A DNA stretch of 64,000 nucleotides, taken from Octopus vulgaris (Eukaryota). Where the stretch lies: positions 109,182,001-109,246,000 of the forward strand of contig OX597819.1 in assembly GCA_951406725.2 (NCBI GenBank), read 5' to 3'. Both the position numbers and the translations under genes were made by a program. The notes under the pieces are model-generated. The model saw nothing but the letters and a program-made list of their open reading frames with translations, searched no databases and had not been told where the DNA came from. Shown in pieces: positions 585 to 52,221 of the stretch. Within the stretch, counting starts at the first letter, position 1; every line of letters starts with the position of its first letter.

Positions 585-1479
585 AAATATCAATATCAAA
601 ATTTATTACAACATATCAACAATTATGAGTTTTTTGTCTTCTACAAGACAAGGTTTATTCCTCTTCAAGCTTGATGTGTTCAACTTCAATTTTATAAATA
701 TCAACTTCAGTATCATGGATATATCTAAATATATCAACACAATGAGAACTTTGATTTTTGATGAGGATTGTGCTGGATTTTGAGGAATTTGTTAGGAGAG
801 AATAAAAGAATGAGAATAATGAATAAAAGATTTAAGGGAAATTGATTTGGTCTTTGTTGTGTTTTCCTCATGGTTGACTTTGTGTTTCATCCTTTCGAGG
901 TCAATAAATTGAGCACCGTTTATATACTGGAGACAATCTAATTGCCTGGCTCCTCCCCATAAATTTTGGGCCTTGGGCCTAGAGAAGAGAAGAATATTTG
1001 CTATGTTGAATTGCTAAGTCATTTAACTATCCTCTTTATCTCACTGACTCTTTTTTTCTATTTCAGAATATCACATCCTGTTGACATAAAAGAAATTACT
1101 TCATTCAGATGTGCCTTTGATATTTTTATCAACTTTTATTGACTAAAGAAAGACGATATATTTATAAGGAGCATTCATCAATACATCTACCTTTTTACTA
1201 TAAAGAAAATCTATGACAAAATATGGCAAAATATTTCTTCTGGACGATGGAATTAACAGCAACAATTTGAAGTCCTTGCTATCTGGAATATAGAGGAGAT
1301 GATTGCTTTACAGGTTAATTAAGCTTGGATAACTTTACAAAGGCGTAGACAATTGTCACCTCATGATTTAGATATTAAGCAAAATCTCAGAGGAAAGAAA
1401 CGTCATTAAATTATTCCCTAAAAATAGTGACACAACTGAACACAAACATTCTCATAGAAATGAAATACACACTATCATT

Positions 1480-2646
1480 GTGATATGTATGACAAATAAT
1501 CCTCTCATAATGAATCATTTAACTAAAACAAACACATCTGATATAGGTGAGAAACCATATTACTCTAATACCTGTAGTAAAACATTCTCTAAAAGTGGTG
1601 TCTTCACTACACACAAACAGACACATAGAGGAGAGAAAGCATATCATTGTGATATCTGTGGTGAATCATACTCTTATAATAGTCAGTTGACTATTCATAA
1701 ACGTGTTCATACAGGTGAGAAGCCATATCATTGTGATATCTGTGGTAAATCATTCTCTCAAAGTGGTGCCATGACTATACACAAACGTACACATACAGGT
1801 GAGAAGCCCTATCATTGTGATATCTGTGGTAAATCATTCTCTATGAGTGTTGCCTTAACTAAACATAAGCGTACACATACAGGAGAGAAGCCCTATTGTT
1901 GTGATATTTGTGGTAAATCATTCTCTCGGAGTGGTCACTTGACTAAACACAAACTTACACATACAGGAGAGAAGCCATATCATTGTGACATTTGTGGTAA
2001 ATCATTCTCTCAGAGTTTTACCTTGACAAGACACAAAATTACACATACAGGCGAGAAGCCATATCATTGTGATATTTGTGATAAATCATACTCTTCAAGT
2101 AGTCACTTGACTTGTCACAAACGTGTTCATACTGGAGAAAGACCATATCATTGTAATATCTGTGGGAAATCTTTCTCTAAAAGTGGTGACTTGACTAGAC
2201 ACAGAATTACACATACAGGAGAGAAGCCATATCATTGTAATATTTGTGGTAAATCATTCTCTCAAAGTAGTGACTTAACTAAACACAAACGTGTTCATAC
2301 AGGAGAAAAGCCATACCACTGTGATATCTGTGGTAAATCATACTCTTATAATAGTCAGTTGACTATTCACAAACGTTTTCATACAGGAGAAAAGCCATAT
2401 CATTGTGACATCTGTGGTAAATCATTCTTTCGAAGTTGTAACTTGCATGAACACGAACGTACACATACAGGAGAGAAGCCATACCACTGTGATATCTGCG
2501 GTAAATCATACTCTGGAAATAGTCAGTTGACTATTCACAAACGCATTCATACAGGAGATAAGCCATATCATTGTGACATCTGTGGTAAATCATTCCCTCA
2601 AAAAGGTAACTTAAGTAGACATTTGAGTATTCATTCACAAGTGTAA
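1480..2646 (+). CDS. Tandem C2H2 (Kruppel-type) zinc-finger protein with 12 canonical fingers and 1 degenerate finger; the true start is uncertain (first in-frame ATG at 1489)
   Basis: Open 388-codon frame with CxxC-x12-HxxxH fingers and TGEKPY linkers. A polypyrimidine/AG acceptor at 1065-1066 suggests this is a terminal coding exon. Confidence 0.88.
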
Positions 2647-14274: not shown

Positions 14275-15440
14275 GATGCCACAAGGACATTATCATAAAA
14301 CTGGCCGACAAGGGTGAAGCTGTGGTGGTGTGGCGCGCAGACCTCTACAAGGCTGAAGCTATCTGCCAACTTCAAGACACCTCTTGCCCTCTGCCCTCCA
14401 ATCCTACACCTAGCTACTAACAGACTGTCCTCCACTATCCTTGACCTCATCTTCTTCTCCCATCTCCCTCCCACCGCTTCCAAACTCATTGTCCGCACTC
14501 CAGGCACCCCACCATCTACTTCCTTCCCAAAATCCGCAAGCTCAACAACCCCAGCCATCCCATCGTCTCTGCCTGTAACTGCCCCATGGAACTGGTCTCA
14601 AAATACCTTGACCATGTCCTTGCTCCCCTAGTGGCTTCCTTCCCCTCCCACATCCATGACACTAACCATGCTCTTCGTCTTTTCAAGTCTTTCTTCTTCC
14701 TTCCCGGACCTTCTAAACTTCTTTTCACTCTTGATATCAAGAGTCTATATACGGTGACCCCACACAACCAAGGAATTCTTTCCCTCAACCACTTCCTAGA
14801 CCTTCAACCCTACCCCCAACCTGACACATCCACACTTCTTTGTCTGGCTGAACTTGTTCTCTCCCTCAAATGCTTGTTCACAGTAGAGTTTTACCAACAG
14901 GTCTCAGGAGTGGCCATGGGAATGAGAATGGGCCCTAACTATACGAATCTGTTTGTTGGCTATGTTGAGGCCCAAATATTTTCAAGATTCACTGGTCCCA
15001 CTTCCGAACTATATGGTCATTATATTGATGACTGTATCGGTGCAGCCTCTCTCTCCCATGAACAACTAGACTCCTTCTTCTCTTTTGTCCAATCCTTCCA
15101 TCCTGCCCTCGAATTCTCCTGCACTATTTCCAACACTTCCATCTCCTTTCTTGGCATTTCAGTAAACATACACAACTCCACTCTCACTACAAACACACCA
15201 ATTCAGACTCATACTTCAAATTCTCCTCCTCCCACCGTACCCACACCAAGCTCTCCATCCCCTACTCCTAATTCCCCCTTCTGCACAGGCTCTGCAGTGA
15301 CAACCATGACTTTGAGACTCAGTCTCAACACATGGCTTGCCACTTCATCCTTCATAGATATCCCCTTGCCAGAGCACGTTCCGTGGACCATGCTTCTGCT
15401 CTCTCTCTCTGCACCATCCAGCATTCTGAACACCTTTTTC
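14275..15440 (+). mobile_element. Penelope-like retroelement reverse transcriptase remnant in RAD1 intron 3
   Basis: IIIKLADKGEAVVVW, LFTLDIKSLYT, YQQVSGVAMGMRMGPNYTNLFVG and YIDD motifs, broken by frameshifts. Confidence 0.85.
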
Positions 15441-15498
15441 TTTCATATGTATTAAATCTCTACATCACCCACAATACTTCTAACATATATATATATAA

Positions 15499-25748: not shown

Positions 25749-27334
25749 ATTTTGGTAGAGAAACCAGTTCTTAAATTGGTAAATTTACAATTATTTATTT
25801 ATTTTTCACTATATTTTTTATGGCTTCTTTTAGAATTTACAACAATGTCTGTCTGAGTTTTTGTTGTTTTTGCTTGGTCTCAGATAAATTCTCTGATCAA
25901 GCATATATATGATCAGAGGTGTTCTAGATGTGACTGTCTTCTCTTTTTTTATACAAAGGACCACATTGCTTGATGTCTCCCACTTTATTTAAGAAGGGAG
26001 GGTATGGATTGAAAGAATTGTAGCTGCTATTTCTAGCACAAATATGGCTATGTGGTTAAGAATTCACTTTGTAATCACTTGGTTCTAGGTTTGATGCCAC
26101 TCTGCAACAACTTGGACAAGTGTCTTCCACTATAGTCCCAAGATGACACAGTTTATAAACGGAATCTTCTTTTATGGTCTGTACATATTTCTTGGATGAT
26201 AAATTTAATATCACCTGATTTAATATCAGCCTCGTCATCTGGCCCTTAGGTTCACAGAATTGGAAACAGATCTTTGTACCTAATATTGAAATGCAGCTTC
26301 CTACTTCAGTAGCCTTCAAGTTGTGTGAGTTGTTTTTCCTTTCCCTGGTCCTTATTGGTCTCTGAAACCCTGTAAAGTTCATTGAGTGCTGCCATTCCTT
26401 CTCACTCGTTACAAACTACAAAGAAATCAAGCAATCCCAAGGAAATTCCTTTGTTTGCTTGTATAAGTGAGAGTATAATGAATGTTGAAGATTAAGGTTA
26501 AAGGTTAGGATTAACATGAACGTTAAAGAGGGGGCATCAAAGTGCTTTTACTACTGATCACATATTTGTAGTTCAAACTTTATTGTTACTATGTTTAAGG
26601 CTTATATCTTTGCAAGCCACAAAAACTGCTATTGCACACGGGCTGCTGAAGAGCTGTGTTATTATTATTATTATATTGGAGAATAGTCTTAGATACAGTG
26701 TGTCTGAAAATAAAATGGAATGATATTGTAGTTGGAACATCTTTTGAATGGGACTAAACAGATTGAAGTAATTGGACAACCAAGGAATGAGGACACTTCT
26801 TCAGGTACATGTCAGGGATATTCTCATATTAGTTACAGTGATGTTGCATTTGACATCAACAAAGCATTTACCTGTGTTTGTCATAAATCTAGATCAGCAA
26901 CTGAAGTATTTTCTCAGCAGGGTTATGGAGTCAAGACTCATCAATTTATGATGCCAATGAATTCATCTTCCCTACTTGTAAGCCCAGTACTTATTCTATC
27001 GGTCTCTTTTGCCGAACCGCTAAGTAACGGGGACGTAAACACACCAGCATCGGTTGTCAAGCAATGCTAGGGAGACAAACACACATACACATATATATAT
27101 ATACATATATACGACGGGCATCTTTCAGTTTCCGTCTACCAAATCCACTCACAAGGCATTGGTCAGCCCGGGGCTATAGCAGAAGACACTTGCCCAAGAT
27201 GCCACGCGGTGGGACTGAACCCGGAACCATGTGGTTGGTTAGCAAGCCACTTACCACACAGCCACTCCTGCGCCTATGATATACAAAGTCAACATGAATC
27301 ATCAGGGCACTTTTTGGAATCCTAACTTATTTAA

Positions 27335-27744
27335 CATATGTTATAGAGCAGTTACTGTTTATATCTCGCTCAGAGATTTATTATTGTTTTCGAACAGATT
27401 TTCTACGCCAGTGACTGTGGTTACTGTGAAAATCTATATATCCAGCCTGTAGAGGAAGTCCCTCAACGAAGAGCGGTGCTTACCACACGTTGACAAGAGG
27501 CAATAACCTCGAAACCGGTCCGTGTGTAGTATCCGTATCTTCGGGGAGGCTGATCTCCCTTTGCAGGCTGGCAAGGACACCGAGATGGTGTCAGCTCTTC
27601 TGGTGACGTTGATGTTCGCCTGGGGCTAAATGCATCAGTAACACCCCCACCACCCCGCCCTGACCCTAGCCACATTCAGATGGCTGATCCCCCTTATGTT
27701 ATAGAGCAGTTACTGTTTATATCTCGCTCAGAGATTTATTATTG
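27335..27744 (+). mobile_element. Retrozyme-like insert: 358-nt monomer plus 50-nt terminal redundancy, flanked by a 12-bp TSD
   Basis: TAACTTATTTAA at 27323-27334 and 27745-27756. 27337-27386 is identical to 27695-27744. Non-coding, GC-richer than the flanks, and contains a hammerhead. Confidence 0.85.
27484..27526 (+). ncRNA. Type I hammerhead ribozyme with a U3-A8 core variant
   Basis: CACACG-TTGACAA-GAGGcaataaCCTC-GAAA-CCGG-TC-CGTGTG: 6-bp stem I, 4-bp stem II, palindromic stem III. Predicted cleavage after GUC at 27520. Confidence 0.8.
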
Positions 27745-30700
27745 TAACTTATTTAAGTTTGGGTTTAAAGGCCATAGTTATGCCACTTTGGCTATTTTTT
27801 ATTGTATTTATAAAAAAAAATTGCAAGCAATTACGCTTTAAATAAAACTTAGAAATTAAAAGAAGTGGCCATGTTTATCAAAAGGTAAGAGGATATAAAA
27901 GAAATAAGATGTAAGAATACTATAAAAGGAAGTCCAAGTTAAAACTAAAAGACTCAACACTTAAAGCAACTTAACAAATTACCATTTTTAAAAAAATGAA
28001 GTCAATTAGATATACAAGTCTTTGATTTCAAGGTTAATGCATAGTTTGAACATAAAATTTGAGTAACTGCTAGCATGAAATTGTACATTAAATGAAATAA
28101 AAATTGTAAAATATTGAACAGTTTATTCCTCTAGAATTTATTGAAGAAGTATTATGTCTATTGAATAAAGGTTAAATGAAAGAAGTCCAAAATTGACTAA
28201 CATCTTCTAAGTTATGGGGACATAAACCAACACCAATTGCCAGTCGATGGTAGGAAGATGAACACAAAGATACACATGTGCACTCACACACACAAATCAC
28301 ATACAAACCACACACATATGTATGGCAGGCTTCCACATAGTTCCTGTCTGCCAAATTCACTCACTCATTAGTCAACTTGGAGCTATAGTAAAAGATACTT
28401 GCCCAAGATGCCACACAGTGGAACTGAACCCAAAACCATGCGACTGCAAAGCAAGCTTCTTAACCACACAGCCACATTTGTGCCTATATCGGTATAAATT
28501 GGAAATTTTAATGCATTATATTATTTATATTTAGCTGAACTTGGAGTCAGTACATTTTTATCAACTCTGACTTCAGTAACCCATTAATTGCTTTTAAGTC
28601 CAATTTCTAACGATAATGATATAGTTTTTACAATGTTATAAATGAGAGATCATCAGAGATTATCTAGTATTGGTAGTAACTTTGGGGAGGTGAGGGTGTT
28701 GTGTTGTACACGACTGGAGACAATCGGGCACAAATTATACTATTTTTATATTACTTTTTGTTTTTATAGTTGTTGATGTGTTGTACATTTTATTTCATAT
28801 TACTTTCATGTATTTATTTTCTCATTGTAGAAATCTCAATTTTTGAAAGGTAATAAGAACTTCAAACCATGAAGATGGAACTGGATTTTCACAGAACAGA
28901 AAATACAAGCTTCATCTGATTATTCCTACCCACTGTCTTTGGTGAAGGATTTGAACAGAAACAAAACCATAATTATGTCAGTCCAACTCATACCAGCATG
29001 GAAAACAGACATTAATGGAAGATGATGTTAGCCATCTACCAACTTTTTCTGTTTTTCTCATAATTGCAGTTAACAACTGTCCTCATCATCACTCACCCAC
29101 TCATGAACAAACTTCATTACATGAAACAAGGGGTGGATTTCAAAATACTTTTCTCTCTGAGGGAAAGCAAAGTGGCAGCTATAAAGTTGTATATATTATT
29201 TGTTTGTTTTATATGGAATATTTAATTAAAATAAACTGGAAATTGTTTTCACTTTTTTAAATTTAATTCAATTTAAATCATGCTGGTGCCATGTTAAAAG
29301 CACCCAGTACACTGAGTGGTTGGCATTTGGAAGCGCATCCAGCCATAGACACCATGTCAGAATAGACAATGGAGCCTGGTGCACCTCCCAGCCTTACCAG
29401 CTCTGGTCAAACCGTTCAACCAATGCCAACATGGAAAACAATGATGATGATAATGATGACAATGATGGCTTTATCCTCAAGTCAGTTCTCATTGAACCAA
29501 CCTAACACCATAGGTGTTCCAAATGTGATCATCCTGTTTCTGTTTAAAATACAATGTAAACAGAGCTACATTATTATGAATAACTTCCTTTTTTTAAAGA
29601 TTTTACCAGTATTTGATTTAAGGAAGATTTGGTTGCTATTTCTAGTAGATGAAGCAACCGTGTATGAGCTCTTTTGGAGGAGGCTCATAACATTTACCTT
29701 AACAAGTGATATCAAAATTCTCGGCTGATGCAAGTCAGTGGAAACTACCCTGAAGGTTAGACATGTTATGTAAGTGAATGCTACATGAAAATATTTTGAG
29801 AATTAATAGTGAAAGTAATTGTGGTAAAAGCAACTAGGAGTGAGGTTTCATCATTGAAATAATACAGGGTTTAAACATACGCAGTCATTCTGTATTGCAA
29901 GTACATACAACCCATGTCAGCGTGGATATTGCTGAGGACTGCACATGGTTCTGTGTGTATACAAAATAGACTAGAGAAGTTTCAATATATATATTTCAGT
30001 GTGTCAAGGGATGCTGGTAGCTGCATCACTATTCAAAGCTATTTAGTACTATCTACAGTGGAGCTGAGGCATAAATATCATCTGCTTAAAACTGTACAGG
30101 GCAAAGCTAAGCTCTGTCTTTTTAAATTACTATGATCCTGGATTGTAGCATGAAGAATTTGAAGGGAAATGGAAGCACATGTTATTCCTCCTAAATATTT
30201 GATCAGCTCCTTTCTGCACGACAGGTTTTCTATGAATGTTTGTGAAAAGATACTTCAGTAAAACATAGCAATGAAGTTATAACAGAGTTTTCTCCCTTGT
30301 GTATGTGAACTAAATTAAGTCTCGATTTCTCATGTATATTCCTAAGTTCGGATCTAATTGAAGAGACCTAAGCTCAAAAGGCTTGCCAAGCCGTGACAAC
30401 TCTGTTTTTCTAATTCCGTTTTTAAGACAGTAAAGTGTGATTTGAAGATTTTGGTGTTGTTTCTAACAAGTTCATGATGATTGATATTGTTATTCAGTCT
30501 TGACTTAGCCATGATTGAACAGACTAACTAAAGAATGGTTCCATTGACAACAGTTCCATCTTATTTATTTTTAGATATAGTATATATATAGCATTTCATT
30601 ATCTAATATGTCCTTCCTTTTTTTTGGTGATTTGAAGGAGGGAAATTTCTAGTAGATTGAATGACATTGTAGAGGTTATCTTTTGGCTTGTGTTAACTTG

Positions 30701-31552
30701 ATTAGAATATGTTGCTTCTGACAAAAGTCTTATGTTTGGAGTATTAAAACTATCTTTACCTTCTCCAACAGATCCAACCAATACACCAACTGCCCCTTTT
30801 ATTTCATCTTCCCAAAATATAATAAAGATATTTATCTTTTATTATTTCAGTCATTAGACTGCAGCCATGCTGGGGTACTGCCTTAAAAAAATTTGAATCA
30901 AACAAATTGACCCCAGTAACTTATTTTCTTAAGTCTCATACTTATTCTGTCAGTCTCTTTTGCTGAACTGCTAAGTTGTGGGACATAAACTTCCAACATC
31001 AGTTAAGCAGTGGGTGAGAACAAAGACTCACACACATACATATGGCAACAGGCTTTTTTCAGTTTCCTCCTACCAAATCCACTCACAAGAATTGGTCAGC
31101 CTGAAGTTATAGTAGAAGGCACTTGCCCAAGGTGCCAGACAGTTGAGCTGGACCCAGAACTATGTGGTTGGGAACCAAACTTCTTACTACCCAGCCACAT
31201 CTGTGCCTATGACAATACTCTTTTACTCAATAAGAGTCATTCTCATCTAGATATCACTCCCCTTCTCAGTTTTTAAATTTGCTGAGTCTTTGAGTAACTA
31301 TAGTTGGTTAATTGACCTCTCCTTTCCTTGCTCAATTACGAGTATGCATGCCTATTCTGTTATCATTGTATAATTTTACAAAATATATATTCAGTACATA
31401 TTATTAATGTCTGTTATTCTATGCATGCATTGAGTGGATGTAGTTTATTGAAGCAAATTTTCTTTGGCTGGCTGCTCTCCCTGACTCCAACCCTCACCTG
31501 TTTCAAGCAAGATCGAATTTTCCCATAGCCAGACGGTTTTTACAGAATATTC

Positions 31553-32973: not shown

Positions 32974-33786
32974 TTATTGTTTTTTTAAATATTGTAAAAG
33001 GGATGTTTGTTTTAATCTTTTCTCTTTACGCAAAGCCCTATAGCAACTGAGTGCTTTTTCAATTTGTTTACTGACTAGCATCGCTCTTTCTACATTTGGA
33101 TCTGAGCCCATTATCATCTGCTTTCCATCTTCAAAAAATTTCAAAATTGCGTCGATTTCATTAATTGAGAATTCTTTCATTTGTGACATAGCTTCGTCTT
33201 GATCAACACTACTAGCATCTTCAGTAATTTGTTTAAATTCGGCGGGATGTCTAGTTGCTGCACTATCGTCCGAACACGCACTTTTCCCTACAATTCCAAG
33301 GTTATACATTTTAGATCGTTTTCTAAACCTGACGAGCCATCCAGAACTTCCAAAAAATGTTTCGTTAGTTTCCGCTTCGGTTTTCTTTTCTTCTTTCCGT
33401 TTTCTTTGGACCGCTCCAAACAAACTGACAGCTTTCTTTTTAATGGCCGTTGTATTTAAAGGAATGTTCTTTTGATTGCAGTCTTCGATCCAAATTGACA
33501 ATAGCCGTTCCATTTCAATCATTGTAGAGCTGCGGTTTCTTGTTGTTTGGAAATTCGACGACAAAGCCGCACTTTGTCCCTTTTCTTTATAAATCTTCGA
33601 GTTCTGAATAATATTGCGCACTGTTGATTCGCCGATAGCGTGTTCTCGGCTAATCTTTGCTTTAGTAAAACCGCTTTCATATTTATCAATTATTGCTAAT
33701 TTTTCTTCCAGTCCTACAACTTTTCTTTTCTTCTTCTCAGCACTTCCACCACTTGTACTGGTGGTACTCTCTTCTTTAGTACTCAT
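32974..33786 (-). CDS. Tigger/pogo transposase-derived protein (psq-type HTH + CENP-B HTH; DDE domain absent), 270 aa
   Basis: KKRKVVGLEEKLAII...IGESTVRNI, MERLLSIWIEDCNQKNIPL, FFGSSGWLVRFRKR and a C-terminal KQTSLLQYL motif, in an uninterrupted ORF. The ATG at 33786 is preceded by a candidate acceptor TTTTTCCCTAACCCTCAAG. Confidence 0.82.
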   Translation of the reverse strand: MSTKEESTTSTSGGSAEKKKRKVVGLEEKLAIIDKYESGFTKAKISREHAIGESTVRNIIQNSKIYKEKGQSAALSSNFQTTRNRSSTMIEMERLLSIWIEDCNQKNIPLNTTAIKKKAVSLFGAVQRKRKEEKKTEAETNETFFGSSGWLVRFRKRSKMYNLGIVGKSACSDDSAATRHPAEFKQITEDASSVDQDEAMSQMKEFSINEIDAILKFFEDGKQMIMGSDPNVERAMLVSKQIEKALSCYRALRKEKRLKQTSLLQYLKKQ

Positions 33787-36700
33787 GATAATAACTTGAG
33801 GGTTAGGGAAAAACTCCCGATTAATGTAACTCCGAATAACATGGTTTATAATTCGACACCAGCTTCCGAAAAACAAAATACATATATATATGATATGCAG
33901 ATGTAGCTATGTATAATAACAAATCATTAAAATACATTCGGCAGCAGTTGAAAGAAAGAAAAGAAACTGAAGGAGAAATTATACTACATTATTTTTCATT
34001 TCTTATACATACCGTTATACTGCAGTAAATCGAATTCTTATACGCAGTATTCGAATTTTAATGTCTAACTACCAATCGCATAAAATCAAGAACCGAAGTA
34101 TTACAGTATGTATAAATTGAGAGAGTGGTGGGGGGACATTTCATGGTGCTGATGATAGAGCGACATATATAGCGAGAAAGAAAGAGGTGACGACTAAAGA
34201 GTGATAGAATAATAGGGTAATGTATATATGAAATGAAAAAGGCATGTAAACGATTATTTTAAAAAATTACTAGTATATAGAGATAAAATTAGGAGCTTTG
34301 GACATGGAAGCTAAACTTACAAAGATAGTAGACAAATTGAAACATAACCTATATTATTTTTATCAATGAGAATTCTAAAAGGATTTTTTTATTGGGTATA
34401 AAACTACTACTCTGATCGAAATAAATATCCATGTATGCAAACGTTCGCAACACTTCATGCACATTTGCAATCCCATTCAAAAATTATGCTGTATAAAATA
34501 AGCACCTTTGAAAAAGCCATCACTGAAGTTTTCAATTTATAAATAATGAAAACCATGAATTACAGCACAATAGACTCGTTTCACTTCAAACCAGAAGCTA
34601 TTAATTCCCAGTCATCTATGGAACCATGTAATAAATAATTATCTGTGTGAGTTAATAATTTGTACGGCATTTATAAACAGATATACGGCTATTATAATTA
34701 GAGTAATTATCATTTCTTTTTATAAAGCAATTTTCTGGGGGTTTCATTTATTTATTTATTTTTTCAGTTATAAGCACCACAAGGGTACTTGAAGTCCTGT
34801 AGCAATTCGTAACTTTTGTTACAGCCATAAATATATTATTCTCAGCTTTGTTTAGATACTTAAATTTATTGTGATTTTGTGCTTGAAAAATTTAAATGAA
34901 TTTCTAAATTGGAATTTAATAAAAGGAACTAAGATAGGCATGACGTCATCTGTTGTCCTTGTTAACCAGTCTCTCCTCCTCTTCCTCTTCCCGCTACCAT
35001 TTCCTCTCTCTCTCCCATTTTTTGTTCTCACCATCCATCTTTTGCTTCTGTTTTTTACTATAACTTCTCCCAAAACATGCGTTGCTTCAACTACAATCAA
35101 TGAATACAGAAATAGCACCACCCCACTACCACCACTCTGAATACTCCTTCTCCCACCACCACTTACTACTACTACCACCGTCAATATTTTTACCGCTCTT
35201 AGTCGTCTTCCCATCCTTTCTCCAATTTAGGGTTGGGTGTTCGATCTTGTAGATGAACATCCTAATTTAGGATTAGAGTTTTTTTTTAGACAGATATTTA
35301 GGGCGCTAGGCAATCAGTCAGTTTATTTAAACAATGGTACTAAGACAGCTTACGCAAAGACCATTTTCGAGATATTGGTGTTTAGGGAGCTTGGCAATTA
35401 TTTTAGTCAATGGTGTTTAAGAAGTGAGGCAAACACCCGTTCGTGACAATGGCGTTTGAAAAATAAGACAAATACCGATGAGAGTGGGATTTGGGGGAGG
35501 CTAGGACTAGAGCAGTTGCCTGCTTGACATTGTCATAGCTTGATGTGTAAACGCATTCGTTGTAATCGTGTGAATTTAGGACAATGCACATGGAGGCAGC
35601 CGAGTGGCGGAAAAAAGCAAATAAGTGCCCACTACTACGAGTCAATGAGGGCAGATGAGTGGGCATGGCTCTACGTAGTTGAGAAATGTATCTTAAATCC
35701 CACCCTTCCTACTCAAGAGGAAGGGCGCATTAGATAGTATCTGTATCCACCAACTCTTATAGTAAGGGATAGTCCGCTCGATAATCCTCCATTTATCTTT
35801 AACTTGAGTTTTTTTCTTATTAATTGTTGCATCTTTAGTTCTGTAATCTATAATATTAGTAATCCAACCTTTCAAATAATGTAAGTCCTACATAACTCTA
35901 CGTTGCTGTTGCTTAAAGAAATTAACCCTAAAAGATGGGACGGTTATGACTGGAATGCATTTGATCATTGGTCTGTCGAATCAATGATGACCTGGGGTTA
36001 AACCGATACACCACTATTGTCCGCATTTTTGTATCCTAATATTAAAGACTGCTCTCTTCCCCCTCTCTCTTCAACGATGATGGTAACGAAAACGGATAAG
36101 CATCCGAAACGTTGGCCCTGTCTACTTCCTAGCATATTTCACTGTTCGAACCACTAAATTCTGTTACTTTTTGCCGTCGCAATCACTGACTTCCCTACCA
36201 CTACATCGCCACTATTACCTAAATTTGGGATCATTTTCTCAATATGAAACGCATGGAGTGGTTGTATTCCATTTCTTTTTACGATTATTAGCTAACTAGT
36301 TGGCCAATTAACATATCTATTAATTAGGTCATCGACGAGTTAATTGGTTGACTAAGTAATAAGTGAAATAGAACCGCTGTGTTTCTTACTGGGGAATAAA
36401 ATAACCCACAAGATTTCACAAGAAGAATCGTTCAAAAGTTTTGAATTTGTTTCGAAAGAATTTTCATCTTTAATCGTGTATTGAAACCAACATTGCTTTA
36501 GTTGGGAAGTCATTCTATTTCATTTCGCATTTTTGGAAAGAGAAGTGAAATACAGACAAGCCACAACCGTTGAGTGTTTATTGGCTTTGTTAAATATGAC
36601 TCATCCCAAACAAGAAAATCTGGCAATACAAAAACTAACTAAACTACTCCACTACCCGTTGTTCTTTGTCTACATAGACTCTTGATACTACTTAATATTC

Positions 36701-50149: not shown

Positions 50150-51669
50150 AATAATAATAATGAAATTATTGTATACAGTGCTCAGGTGCACCACAACTTG
50201 TCAGAAAGTGCATATAAAGTACATGCAGTAGTGTAGAAATGTCTGGGTGTATGGAGGGAAGAAAATCAAGTGTAGTGTTGGCGAATCTCAGGAAGCATGG
50301 AAGTCTTGAAGGATGCAGTGCTCCGACAACTGACAACCGATGTCGGCAGTTTGTTCCACGCTTCAGCAACTCTCAGCGTGAAAAAATGTTTCCTGAAGTC
50401 ATGGGAGCTGTGCTGTTTTCTTACTTTGTAAATATGTCCACGGGTGTTAGATGGGTGGAGTTTGAAGAGGTGCTCAGAGTTATTGTTTGTGCGATGGTTG
50501 ATAATTTTATGGGTGTCTGCCAAGTCAGCTGCCAGACGTCGGAGTTTTAATGTGTCCATGCCCAGGGAGGTAAGGCGTTCAGGATATGGCAAATGCCTGA
50601 TGGAGGGTATTCTTTTGGTTGCACGTCACTGAACAGCTTCCAGACGATTGATGTCCTGGGCAAGATAGGGGCTCCAGACCGGCGATGCAAACTCCAGGTG
50701 AGGTCTTACCATAGCTATATAAAGCCGCAGATAGATAGCCGGAGAGCGGCTCACAAAGGATTTGGTGAGTGATGCCGAGACACCCTCAGCCTTCTTGACA
50801 ATTTTAGCGATGTGTTTTGTCCAATGCAAATCGCTGTCGACAATAACACCCAGGTCACGTTCACTTGAAGACTTTTTGAGACTAGTGTTGTGGAGGGAGT
50901 AGGTGGACGCTGGGTTTCTCCTCCCAAAATGCATGGTGGTACATTTGTCCACAGCCAGCTTGAGTTGCCAGTCCATGATCCACTGCTGCATTGTGTCCAG
51001 GTCTGCTTGCAATAGAGATCCATAGTGTATAGGATTTGACCTCTTTATTTCGAGGTACAGCTTGATGTCATCTGCATATTTCAGCACTGTGGCATTCTTT
51101 AAGTTGACATCTATGTCATTAACATATGCAACAAATAAAAGGGGGCCAAGAACAGATCCCTGCGGCACACCAGATGTCATCTCATAGGGCGAAGAGTGCT
51201 GTCCTAGAACTGTGACAACCTCTTTTCGGCCGAAAATAAAGGACTTTAACCAGTTATAGAGTTCGTCTCTTACACCCAACGCAGAAAGCTTCACCATAAG
51301 TCTTTTGTGTGGCACAGAGTTAAAAGCCTTAGCAAAGTCCAGGTAAACAACATCCACCCAGGATCCGCGATCAGTGATTTGGGTAACATCCTCAAGAAAC
51401 TCGATGAGTTGATTACAACAGCTGGAGTTAGGAATAAATCCGAATTGTGACGGCTGGATGAGGCTGTGAGACTTCCAGAAGTTCCAGAGGGTTTCTCTGA
51501 TACAGGATTCCATCAGTTTGGCGATGCAGCTGGTAAGACTGACGGGGCGATAGTTGACAGGCGATGTGCGGTCGCCTTTTTTGAACAGAGGGATGACACT
51601 GGCAGTTTTCCACTGTTCTGGAGTAACACCATTGTCAAGACAGAATTGGAAGAATAGAGAAAGTTGGCT
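50150..51669 (-). mobile_element. 5'-truncated CR1/L2-group LINE (RT domain to 3' end) inserted into a SINE
   Basis: One frame runs WKTASVIPLFKKG, NYRPVSLTS, YLDFAKAF, GVPQGSVLGPLLF, YADD to FFTLRVAEAWNKLP, with a single TGA at 50626-50628 and a (TTA)n-like tail. The SINE halves lie at 50056-50149 and 51670-51960. Confidence 0.92.
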
Positions 51670-52221
51670 TCGGGTCGATCAAAGCCTTGTGAGTGGATTT
51701 GGTAGATGGAAACTGAAAGAAGCCCGTCATATATATGTATATGTATATATATATGTGTGTGTGTTTGTGTCTGTGTTTATCCCCACTAACATCACTTGAC
51801 AACCGATGCTGGTGTGTTTACGTCCCTGTAACTTAGCTGTTTGGCAAAAGAGACCGATAGAATAAGTACTAGGCTTACAAAAGAATAAGTCCTGGGGTCG
51901 ATTTGCTCAACTAAAGGCTGTGCTCCAGCATTGCCACAGTCAAATGACTGAAACAAGTAAAGGAGTAGATGACTAAGGCAAATAATGGAGTGAAATATAG
52001 GAGAGGCTTGGGTGCGGGTTTTTGTAGTCGGTATGCAGGGGCATTGAGGATGATAGCAGATAAGGGAGGTGTTAAGAATAGAGAACAACACAGGGATAGA
52101 AGGCACAGAGGTGACTTGTGGAGGCAGTAGGTGGGATAATGGGAGCAGTTGAGAAAATCAATTTGCCATGTATCTGTAATCTTTACAGTTCCTGTGCATC
52201 TTCCACATACAAACACTATCT

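Follow-up and report, generated by a model that had tools for sequence, protein, structure and literature searches.

An insert that is flanked by 12-bp duplications and begins to repeat itself after 358 nt interrupts a 64,000-nucleotide stretch of the Octopus vulgaris genome (contig OX597819.1; this whole stretch is hereafter called the window). Was it copied from a small circular RNA, and what kind of enzyme inserted it? An earlier note had proposed a cDNA running slightly more than once around a 358-nt circle. The duplications on which that proposal was built are present: the target-site duplication (TSD), TAACTTATTTAA, occurs twice in the whole window, once at each end of the insert (Table 1), and the direct repeat (51 nt, 27337-27387 and 27695-27745, spacing 358) is 100% identical. 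The note also placed the start of the insert at the start of this repeat; the repeat itself stands, but the first 3 nt (27335-27337) are likely an inverted stub of a second arm, outside the repeat. This reading follows from the family anatomy described below, and the stub is the reverse complement of unit positions 2-4, followed by 3 further nt matching the TSD. The nearest other unit is 98.6% identical and the window copy has a single private base, both of which speak for a recent insertion; the identical 51-nt repeats are weak evidence of it, because copies within the same insertion differ by just 1.2-1.4% in the window subfamily. As the window copy carries one hammerhead it is a product, unable itself to yield a monomer by double cleavage.

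Table 1. Parts of the window copy, with positions numbered from the first letter of the window
Feature	Position	Strand	Basis or remark
Left TSD, 12 bp	27323..27334	.	Sequence; 12 bp is the modal TSD length of the family
Putative inverted second-arm stub, ending at start site S1	27335..27337	-	Sequence, read by the head-to-head S1+S2 anatomy
358-nt unit, predicted circular monomer	27337..27694	+	49.4% GC; longest stop-free frame 72 codons
Hairpin closed by AGATTTTC/GAAAATCT	27396..27435	+	MFE fold; absent from cross-subfamily consensus fold
Long rod extending hammerhead stem I, ribozyme at tip	27442..27571	+	MFE fold
Type I hammerhead	27484..27526	+	Predicted cleavage 27520/27521; stem III ACCGGT 27514-27519
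Hairpin GACACC/GGTGTC	27576..27592	+	Conserved, with covariation
Hairpin directly upstream of S1	27669..27684	+	4 invariant pairs in 16/16 representatives
Start of second turn, to S1 (unit position 9)	27695..27703	+	S1 is the commonest 3' end among family copies
Penelope-type 42-nt 'tail' between S1 and S2	27704..27745	+	Window copy ends at S2, unit position 51 (PMC11167929, PMC8557442)
Right TSD	27745..27756	.	Sequence; first base common to the element end

The window element is one copy in a family of more than 1,000 motif copies. From roughly 1,200 such copies we mapped 143 non-redundant loci and a further 7 of an older sister family, 28 duplicate or segmentally duplicated loci having been removed ahead of counting; as loci were picked by similarity or motif, the length statistics are biased to long copies. 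The copies are dispersed over all large contigs listed. Unit length is 352-362 nt in 71 of 71 units measured (duplicate loci included), and both the ~358-nt length and the fold are kept across subfamilies down to about 55-60% identity. Most copies comprise fewer than two units, and at least two cleavage sites are found in 27 of the 234 arms. The tandem multimers predicted for the genome were seen, with up to 3.5 units per arm and a longest arm of 1,261 nt, and 107 arms exceed 358 nt (in a sample favouring long copies), as expected of a template longer than one unit. Random circular permutation was not found. While 5' ends are uniform along the unit (chi-square P = 0.74), 218 of the 234 arms have their 3' end at one of two fixed sites, which lie 42 nt from each other; 88 arms end exactly at unit position 9 (S1) and 97 within unit positions 45-58 (S2). 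The ~50-nt redundancy of the window copy is therefore a Penelope 'tail' plus a 5' end that fell by chance at the unit start. Among two-arm, head-to-head insertions with both canonical ends, 70 of 71 pair S1 with S2 (P about 1e-20 if the ends were independent). Targets are AT-rich, (TA)4 adjoining 154 of the 218 canonical ends, and the modal TSD is 12 bp (found at 9 of the 25 loci where a duplication could be detected).

Such insertion scars suggest that Penelope-type enzymes move the family. In vitro, a Penelope-like element (PLE) uses two adjacent internal RT start sites, cleaves both target strands and prefers AT (Frangieh et al. 2024, PMC11167929), and the two 3' ends, the S1+S2 pairing and the (TA)4 targets of the family match each of these properties. 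In PLE insertions just one of the two ends bears a tail (Craig et al. 2021, PMC8557442), and the family agrees in this too. Like pLTR/tail insertions of PLEs (PMC8557442, PMC11167929), the family shows 5' truncation, partial tandems, an inverted 5'-truncated second copy, a tail of 30-40 nt confined to one end, a pair of internal RT start sites with a hammerhead upstream of them, and AT/(TA)n targets. Unlike PLEs, it lacks an ORF and has a unit of 358 nt rather than 3-4 kb; the rule of one site per arm (70/71) and the common haplotype of both arms are quantified here for this family. The earlier proposal, of a hammerhead retroelement that has no ORF, is non-autonomous and was inserted with a TSD, is supported, and we are confident that the family is mobilised by a PLE. 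The identity of the helper is hinted at by one locus. The insertion anatomy recurs in a young family of RT/GIY-YIG PLEs from this genome, with two ends ~57 nt apart and, in 4 of 4 visible pairs, one member long and the other short; at locus L044 the 5' end of a mini element is joined directly to the ORF of this PLE, which suggests that it may be the helper. Against this, its tail is 57 nt and not 42, just 1 of the 143 loci holds the chimera, which has a deletion on either side, and no sequence homology was found between the L044 PLE and the mini element.

The type I hammerhead claimed for the window copy is present in the sequence, with U3 at 27490, A8 at 27495 and a palindromic stem III. It consists of stem I CACACG/CGTGTG, core TTGACAA, stem II GAGG/CCTC with a GAAA loop, and ACCGGT, and was the sole match in a hammerhead scan of the window, on the plus strand only. 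The extra helices named in the earlier note were also all found, and the fold is more stable than that of 100 shuffles on the plus strand (z = -4.9) and, to a lesser degree, on the minus strand (z = -2.9). Rfam gave no match at the gathering score and no hammerhead match up to E = 10; the non-canonical core causes standard descriptors and Rfam to miss the family. Across 16 subfamily representatives, 94% of cells in the hammerhead are paired, with two-sided changes at 8 of 15 pairs, and the catalytic positions besides the 3-8 pair (U4, G5, A6, A9, G12-A14, U16.1, C17) are invariant in 16/16; no indels occur in the hammerhead among 51 copies tabulated. Of the long rod, just the inner part was recovered by RNAalifold across subfamilies (covariation term -1.9 kcal/mol). 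The conserved hairpin directly upstream of S1 is a candidate RT-binding signal. Stem III is self-complementary in 6 of 6 variants tested; the monomer fold is computed to be 5.6 kcal/mol less stable with stem III than without it, and stem III self-duplexes are computed at -5.5 to -14.9 kcal/mol.

The 3-8 pair itself is not fixed. The U3-A8 state is family-wide (414 matches) rather than private decay of the window copy, and the expectation that Watson-Crick pairing has to be retained here does not hold, since subfamilies have amplified with U3.G8 (about 385-395 motif copies, in two separate groups in the tree) and with C3.A8 (21 loci that include at least two haplotypes and multimers as long as 1,052 nt; a clade of 28 rows with support 100/99). 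The tree is midpoint-rooted, includes the core columns, leaves out the C3-G8 sister family and has a bootstrap that is not fully settled; for these reasons the order that it gives for the 3-8 changes is a tentative one. The single 3-8 substitutions G8A and C3U impair hammerheads. G8C and C3G abolish their activity (PMC11167929). Ribozyme cleavage in the family may be weak or dispensable. A wider proposal, which we put forward tentatively and with rather less than even credence, is that ~358-nt RNA parasites of Penelope elements, forming one long-lived lineage, moved the 3-8 pair through C-G, U.G, U-A and C.A by single transitions and spread in each, including those expected to be near-inactive; either circles would need only a strongly throttled or protein-assisted ribozyme, which would also explain how they escape self-cutting, or the elements would spread without cleavage. 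The insertion scars would further mean that a single small RNA, with two sites 42 nt apart, serves one PLE dimer for priming on both target strands, which would make the family RNA a minimal natural substrate for PLE-mediated insertion.

Our overall account, which we consider probable, is of a non-LTR retrozyme that is non-autonomous and depends on a GIY-YIG PLE for mobilisation in trans. Copies with at least two hammerheads would be transcribed, the ribozymes, paired as dimers by their self-complementary stem III, would cleave at what is probably a low rate, and a ligase of the host would close a ~358-nt circle. A dimeric PLE protein would then bind this RNA close to the conserved hairpin and the tail, and would cut both strands of an AT-rich target with a stagger of ~12 nt; of two cDNAs primed on a shared RNA or haplotype, one would start at S1 and one at S2, and each would extend a random distance, often beyond one round, before end-joining links the two head to head. 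On this scheme the window copy would combine a 3-nt stub from S1 with an S2-primed cDNA of 1.14 turns.

Whether the template is a circle bears directly on this account. The cleavage site is crossed by 180 of the 234 arms, and twice by 27; 5' ends do not pile up there (8 observed, 7.2 expected), as they would with a cleaved linear monomer as template. Units inside one insertion belong to one haplotype (3% mismatch, as against 26%, at 29 diagnostic sites). Clean crossing of the cleavage site and a single haplotype per insertion fit a monomeric circle without proving it, and we think it reasonably likely that such a circle is the main template. Contigs from three runs guessed to be RNA cover the unit, and are uninformative on strand, ends and circles.

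The same PLE machinery might instead have copied mainly uncleaved linear transcripts, by tandem or fold-back read-through, with tandems remade by template switching or by annealing of two cDNAs and the hammerhead fold serving mostly as a protein-binding or dimerising module, or cleaving rarely. Two loci, L175 and L176, have a base-identical inversion junction and two private bases in common within differing flanks, and are best explained by copying of a linear fold-back transcript with just one hammerhead; theirs is the only inherited-looking pair among 83 junctions, however, other near-matches lying at about the level of chance or microhomology (8 pairs, 4.3 expected). Switching between templates is seen at L044, and the amplification of the C3.A8 clade and of two U3.G8 groups is also what linear templates would allow. 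Published experiments lean the same way: RNA that had not been processed was the main substrate for insertion in vitro, no RNA-seq ends lay at the cleavage site and hammerhead mutants left PLE insertion in vitro unaffected (all PMC11167929), and just 1 of 9 Xenopus dimers cleaved in a 2026 preprint (bioRxiv 10.64898/2026.07.22.740005). Yet a common leader sequence was found in none of 58 single-arm loci, nor was an upstream flank in common found; arrays show no turn-specific differences such as a heterogeneous linear multimer would leave (mismatch 1.9, 1.8 and 1.7% by turn), a weak test if source loci are young; unit length is strictly held; and the remaining catalytic positions stay invariant while the stems covary. 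We regard linear transcripts as unlikely to be the main templates.

It is very improbable that the copies are mere truncated ends (pLTRs) of an autonomous Penelope element. They do show pLTR anatomy, a hammerhead followed by two start sites and a tail, but no arm or tail continues into common non-unit sequence in the 143 loci or the 7 sister-family loci; past the tail the sequence re-enters the 358-nt unit, giving perfect tandems. The many unit-length haplotypes indicate that the 358-nt form is itself the replicating lineage. Among the first 90 loci, an ORF scan found PLE ORFs at L037 and L044 alone, both non-homologous to the unit. The L037 PLE lies in the same (TA)n tract, has its own canonical hammerhead and is unrelated. 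Other candidate parents were rejected: long spacings at L185/L186 and L193/L194 turned out to be local duplications, and high-depth tail-sharing contigs were traced to the older 358-nt sister family. The unit has no ORF encoding RT and GIY-YIG between pLTRs, and the sampled loci hold no homologous parent, while the two fixed 3' ends, 5' truncation, inverted second copy and AT-rich targets are those of a PLE-mobilised element. Least credible is that rolling-circle copying with random priming, or unequal crossing-over that amplified a satellite at the DNA level, produced the copies; this would account for the tandems and more-than-unit copies but not for the two fixed 3' sites, the strict S1+S2 head-to-head arms, the TSDs, or the dispersal over all large contigs listed at no more than 3.5 units per arm.

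By its sequence the family is a non-LTR retrozyme, an already known kind of element, with cleavage and circles predicted. The type I hammerhead in each unit is assigned from fold and covariation, the core being non-canonical and Rfam negative; units of 352-362 nt in tandem fall within the 150-450 bp of retrozymes; a longest frame of 72 codons and the lack of an attached homologous ORF agree with a non-coding element without LTR-PBS-PPT layout; and GC is below 50% and the TSD longer than 4 bp. Integration in DNA and a hammerhead on the plus strand alone in the window scan set the family apart from viroids and viroid-like replicons, which replicate from RNA to RNA with ribozymes in both polarities and have no DNA phase. 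Metazoan non-LTR retrozymes have been described, such as the 350-390 bp families of mussel (Mytilus) and axolotl (Cervera and de la Pena 2020, PMC7229834; Li et al. 2026, bioRxiv 10.64898/2026.07.22.740005), and Li et al. argue for a PLE origin of retrozymes. As there described, those families resemble ours in having a non-coding unit, a few hundred nt long and tandemly copied, that contains a type I hammerhead, as well as GC below 50%, TSDs above 4 bp, a palindromic short stem III and PLEs as proposed mobilisers; ours differs in its dispersed partial tandems (at most 3.5 units), head-to-head arms and two fixed RT start sites, an anatomy for which we found no description among retrozymes in these papers, in its non-canonical core, and in that no parent pLTR was found among the loci sampled. 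We found no report of such a family from cephalopods in the literature, where supplements of the cited papers could list some.

The same natural 3-8 substitutions are known elsewhere: U3-A8 was already reported in Schistosoma PLE min-HHRs (PMC4209133), with variants also in Perreault et al. 2011 (PMC3088659), and U3.G8 in a natural variant from halophiles (PMC7151607). What is new is that ~358-nt subfamilies with as little as 56% identity keep the fold across four 3-8 states, both mismatched ones amplified; in contrast to known variants, C-G, U.G, U-A and C.A all occur within one lineage, in subfamilies that amplified separately. No literature report of an amplified natural C3.A8 family was found, although Lunse et al. 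2017, on PLE hammerhead variants, may cover one. The enzyme that moves animal retrozymes and the role of circles and cleavage in their cycle are called open in the discussion of PMC7229834 and in the 2026 preprint. The family offers genomic evidence for PLE-type two-site priming on a protein-free 358-nt unit, and its catalytic 3-8 pair forms an allelic series in nature in which every state has a copy number of its own; short transcripts and a single recombinant protein would suffice to test both questions. Among the motif copies counted, about 830-840 have a non-canonical core, and searches with a canonical core overlook most members of such families.

The window copy of the mini element, a protein-free 358-nt hammerhead retroelement family, is a 410-bp insert flanked on both sides by TAACTTATTTAA, which occurs only these two times within the 64-kb window. 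The insert, the 51-nt exact repeat in it at a spacing of 358 nt, and the type I hammerhead with U3 and A8 (core positions that form a tertiary pair, the 3-8 pair) were all claimed in the earlier note and are present in the sequence; the insertion is real and recent. Stem II of this hammerhead has 4 bp and stem III is the palindrome ACCGGT. The 358-nt unit has a GC content of 49% and stop-free frames of at most 72 codons. Its fold is stronger for the + strand (z = -4.9; - strand, z = -2.9), the ribozyme capping the tip of a long rod in the predicted structure. An Rfam search of the window element gave no hammerhead match.

We searched the genome (2.8 Gb, 227 contigs) with the mini element and obtained 106 matches from the best 40 of 1,887 candidates; the 34-nt ribozyme core has 112 exact genome matches. 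After removal of 28 duplicates, the mapped set encompasses 143 non-redundant loci and 234 arms (copy tracts) of at least 60 nt, with unit positions numbered from m1 = window 27337. Arm 5' ends are spread uniformly round the unit (P = 0.74). Arm 3' ends are bimodal: 121 lie at site S1 (88 exactly at m9), 97 at site S2 (m45-58) and 16 elsewhere. Thus, the varied permutation points predicted for the copies fail at the 3' end, where 218 of 234 arms stop at one of two sites. Arms exceed one unit in 107 of 234 cases and two units in nine (longest 1,261 nt), figures biased by locus sampling that favours long copies. Head-to-head pairs make up 83 insertions among the 143 loci, and the 71 pairs with two canonical ends comprise 70 S1+S2, one S1+S1 and no S2+S2 (P about 1e-20). 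(TA)4 adjoins 154 of the 218 canonical ends, and in the 25 loci where a target-site duplication could be detected its commonest length is 12 bp. In the window copy, an arm of 1.14 turns ends at S2 and is accompanied by a 3-nt inverted S1 stub.

This insertion anatomy is that of Penelope. Craig et al. (PMC8557442) describe copies of Penelope-like elements (PLEs) as partial tandems with an inverted 5'-truncated copy, a tail of 30-40 bp, in many cases at just one end, and insertion into microsatellites. In the account of Frangieh et al. (PMC11167929), a PLE protein, a predicted dimer, acts in vitro on both strands of AT-rich DNA, cutting and extending each, and has two neighbouring internal start sites for reverse transcription, between which the tail lies; insertion is unaffected by hammerhead mutants, and ribozyme cleavage is seen only with the protein present. 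The mini element shows the same insertion signatures, but without an ORF.

A circular-RNA template, proposed in the earlier note, is still the likeliest model, on grounds other than those offered there. Units of one insertion have a common haplotype at 29 diagnostic sites (mismatch of 2.9% in tandem and 3.1% in inverted units, versus 25.7% between loci), mismatch is independent of turn, no common leader was found upstream of 58 single-arm copies, and unit length is kept at 352-362 nt across subfamilies as distant as 55-60%. Given these sequence patterns, a monomeric circle would be the simplest explanation and is probably the template. Two loci on one contig, L175 and L176, some 160 kb from each other, bear against it: their inversion junctions are identical to the base and two private bases are common to both, with different flanks and with ends swapped between S1 and S2. 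They are two independent insertions, possibly parent and daughter. A linear fold-back transcript of one of them, primed at two sites, would yield this pattern; the junction arose also in another subfamily (locus L004), so that a microhomology hot spot is possible. A cleaved linear monomer is out as template, because the predicted cleavage site is crossed by 180 of the 234 arms (twice by 27), 5' ends do not pile up there (8 versus 7.2 expected) and the ribozyme has no indels in the 51 copies tabulated.

The substitutions G8A and C3U strongly slow hammerhead cleavage. In a genome pattern search anchored on stem II, U3-A8 accounts for 414 motifs and C3.A8 for 29; in a further 409, position 8 is not A (G in 98 of 100 among the matches listed). 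Of the G8 motifs, only 14 depart from U at position 3 (C in 7, G in 4, A in 3), which leaves about 385-395 as U3.G8. In a tree built on 180 half-units, C3.A8 is a clade of 28 rows (support 100/99) nested in U3-A8, and U3.G8 arises at two places. The C3.A8 clade spans 21 loci and two haplotypes, separated by 5 differences, has arrays of up to 1,052 nt, and therefore drew on more than one source. All 16 representatives agree at the other core positions, and stem III remains self-complementary across six sequences. The stems covary and are 94% paired (slid controls, 19-51%), with two-sided change in 23 cells versus 7.6 in shuffles, a test inflated by relatedness. An older sister family (391 genome matches to the tail-junction pattern) agrees with the mini element in its 358-nt unit and its S1/S2 ends; its stem II differs and, in four copies aligned, its core is canonical C3-G8. 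The path C-G, U.G, U-A, C.A, in this putative direction, takes one transition per step. Natural U3-A8 is recorded (PMC4209133; PMC3088659), and natural U3.G8 is mentioned in PMC7151607. A first look gave 2,943 candidates for the sister family, whose stem II has an unusual base, U-A or C.A replacing G-C.

Features of the window and of mapped loci (L handles)
Feature	Location	Strand	Detail
Flanking duplication	window 27323-27334, 27745-27756		
Type I hammerhead	window 27484-27526	+	core TTGACAA (U3, A8)
Older 358-nt sister family	L080:680-1040, L200-L205		canonical C3-G8 core
Chimeric insertion	L044:1612-4511		inverted PLE arms joined to mini-element arm
PLE hammerhead-like motif	L092-L115 (e.g. 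L096:4450-4520)		GTGAACA (G3-C8)
PLE family with canonical hammerhead	L037:1650-1830, L037:2833-4724, L096:4700-4870		
SINE-like repeat	window 27116-27278 and 12 further copies (e.g. 28339-28487, 31051-31211)		
Open frame, 424 aa	window 1372-2646	+	~12 C2H2 zinc fingers
Two reverse-transcriptase fragments (RVT_1) and CENP-B/Tc5-type transposase fragment	window 14445-15455, 50626-51678, 32974-33906	+, -, -	

When the first 90 loci were scanned for ORFs, PLE ORFs turned up next to two mini copies, L037 and L044. The L037 PLE is unrelated and lies with the mini copy in a common (TA)n tract. At L044, the mini arm's 5' end (m115) is fused directly into the PLE ORF with a 1-nt overlap, at a junction within a head-to-head PLE insertion, and the arm is followed by an inverted duplication that takes in ~120 nt of flank and the mini element's final 28 nt. 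The L044 PLE family (890 candidates, best copies 96-99% identical) is young. It encodes a reverse transcriptase with a C-terminal GIY-YIG-like domain and a linker that we take to be Neptune-type, and has two 3' ends ~57 nt apart, with one long and one short arm in all four visible pairs. We found no sequence homology between this PLE and the mini unit, and no continuation into a homologous parent among the sampled mini copies. On this one case, the family is a candidate helper. Its members have a hammerhead-like motif of their own, in which the core is swapped, stem II is preceded by an extra base and stem III is palindromic; nearly all copies examined keep this motif, so that a second non-canonical 3-8 pair exists in the genome. 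The (TA)n tracts that receive the mini element and the L044 PLE are also targeted by a further PLE family, whose hammerhead is canonical.

The mini element is on every feature testable here a metazoan non-LTR retrozyme, for which two defining features of that class, cleavage and circular RNA, are predicted. It is neither a viroid nor, lacking an ORF, an autonomous PLE. The nearest described case is the mussel retrozyme families of 350-390 bp in PMC7229834, where PLEs are proposed as mobilisers of metazoan non-LTR retrozymes; for vertebrate retrozymes, a 2026 preprint (bioRxiv 10.64898/2026.07.22.740005) argues a pLTR origin. No octopus or cephalopod report of such a family turned up in the literature searches. 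The interest lies in a clear PLE priming signature together with a series of naturally occurring variants of the core, through which the life cycle of retrozymes can be tested directly.

The mini element is present in sequencing runs of five coded organisms (A-E) and is therefore common to several species labels. The abundant SINE-like repeat of the window, with copies 71-90% identical, is very deep in sequencing runs.
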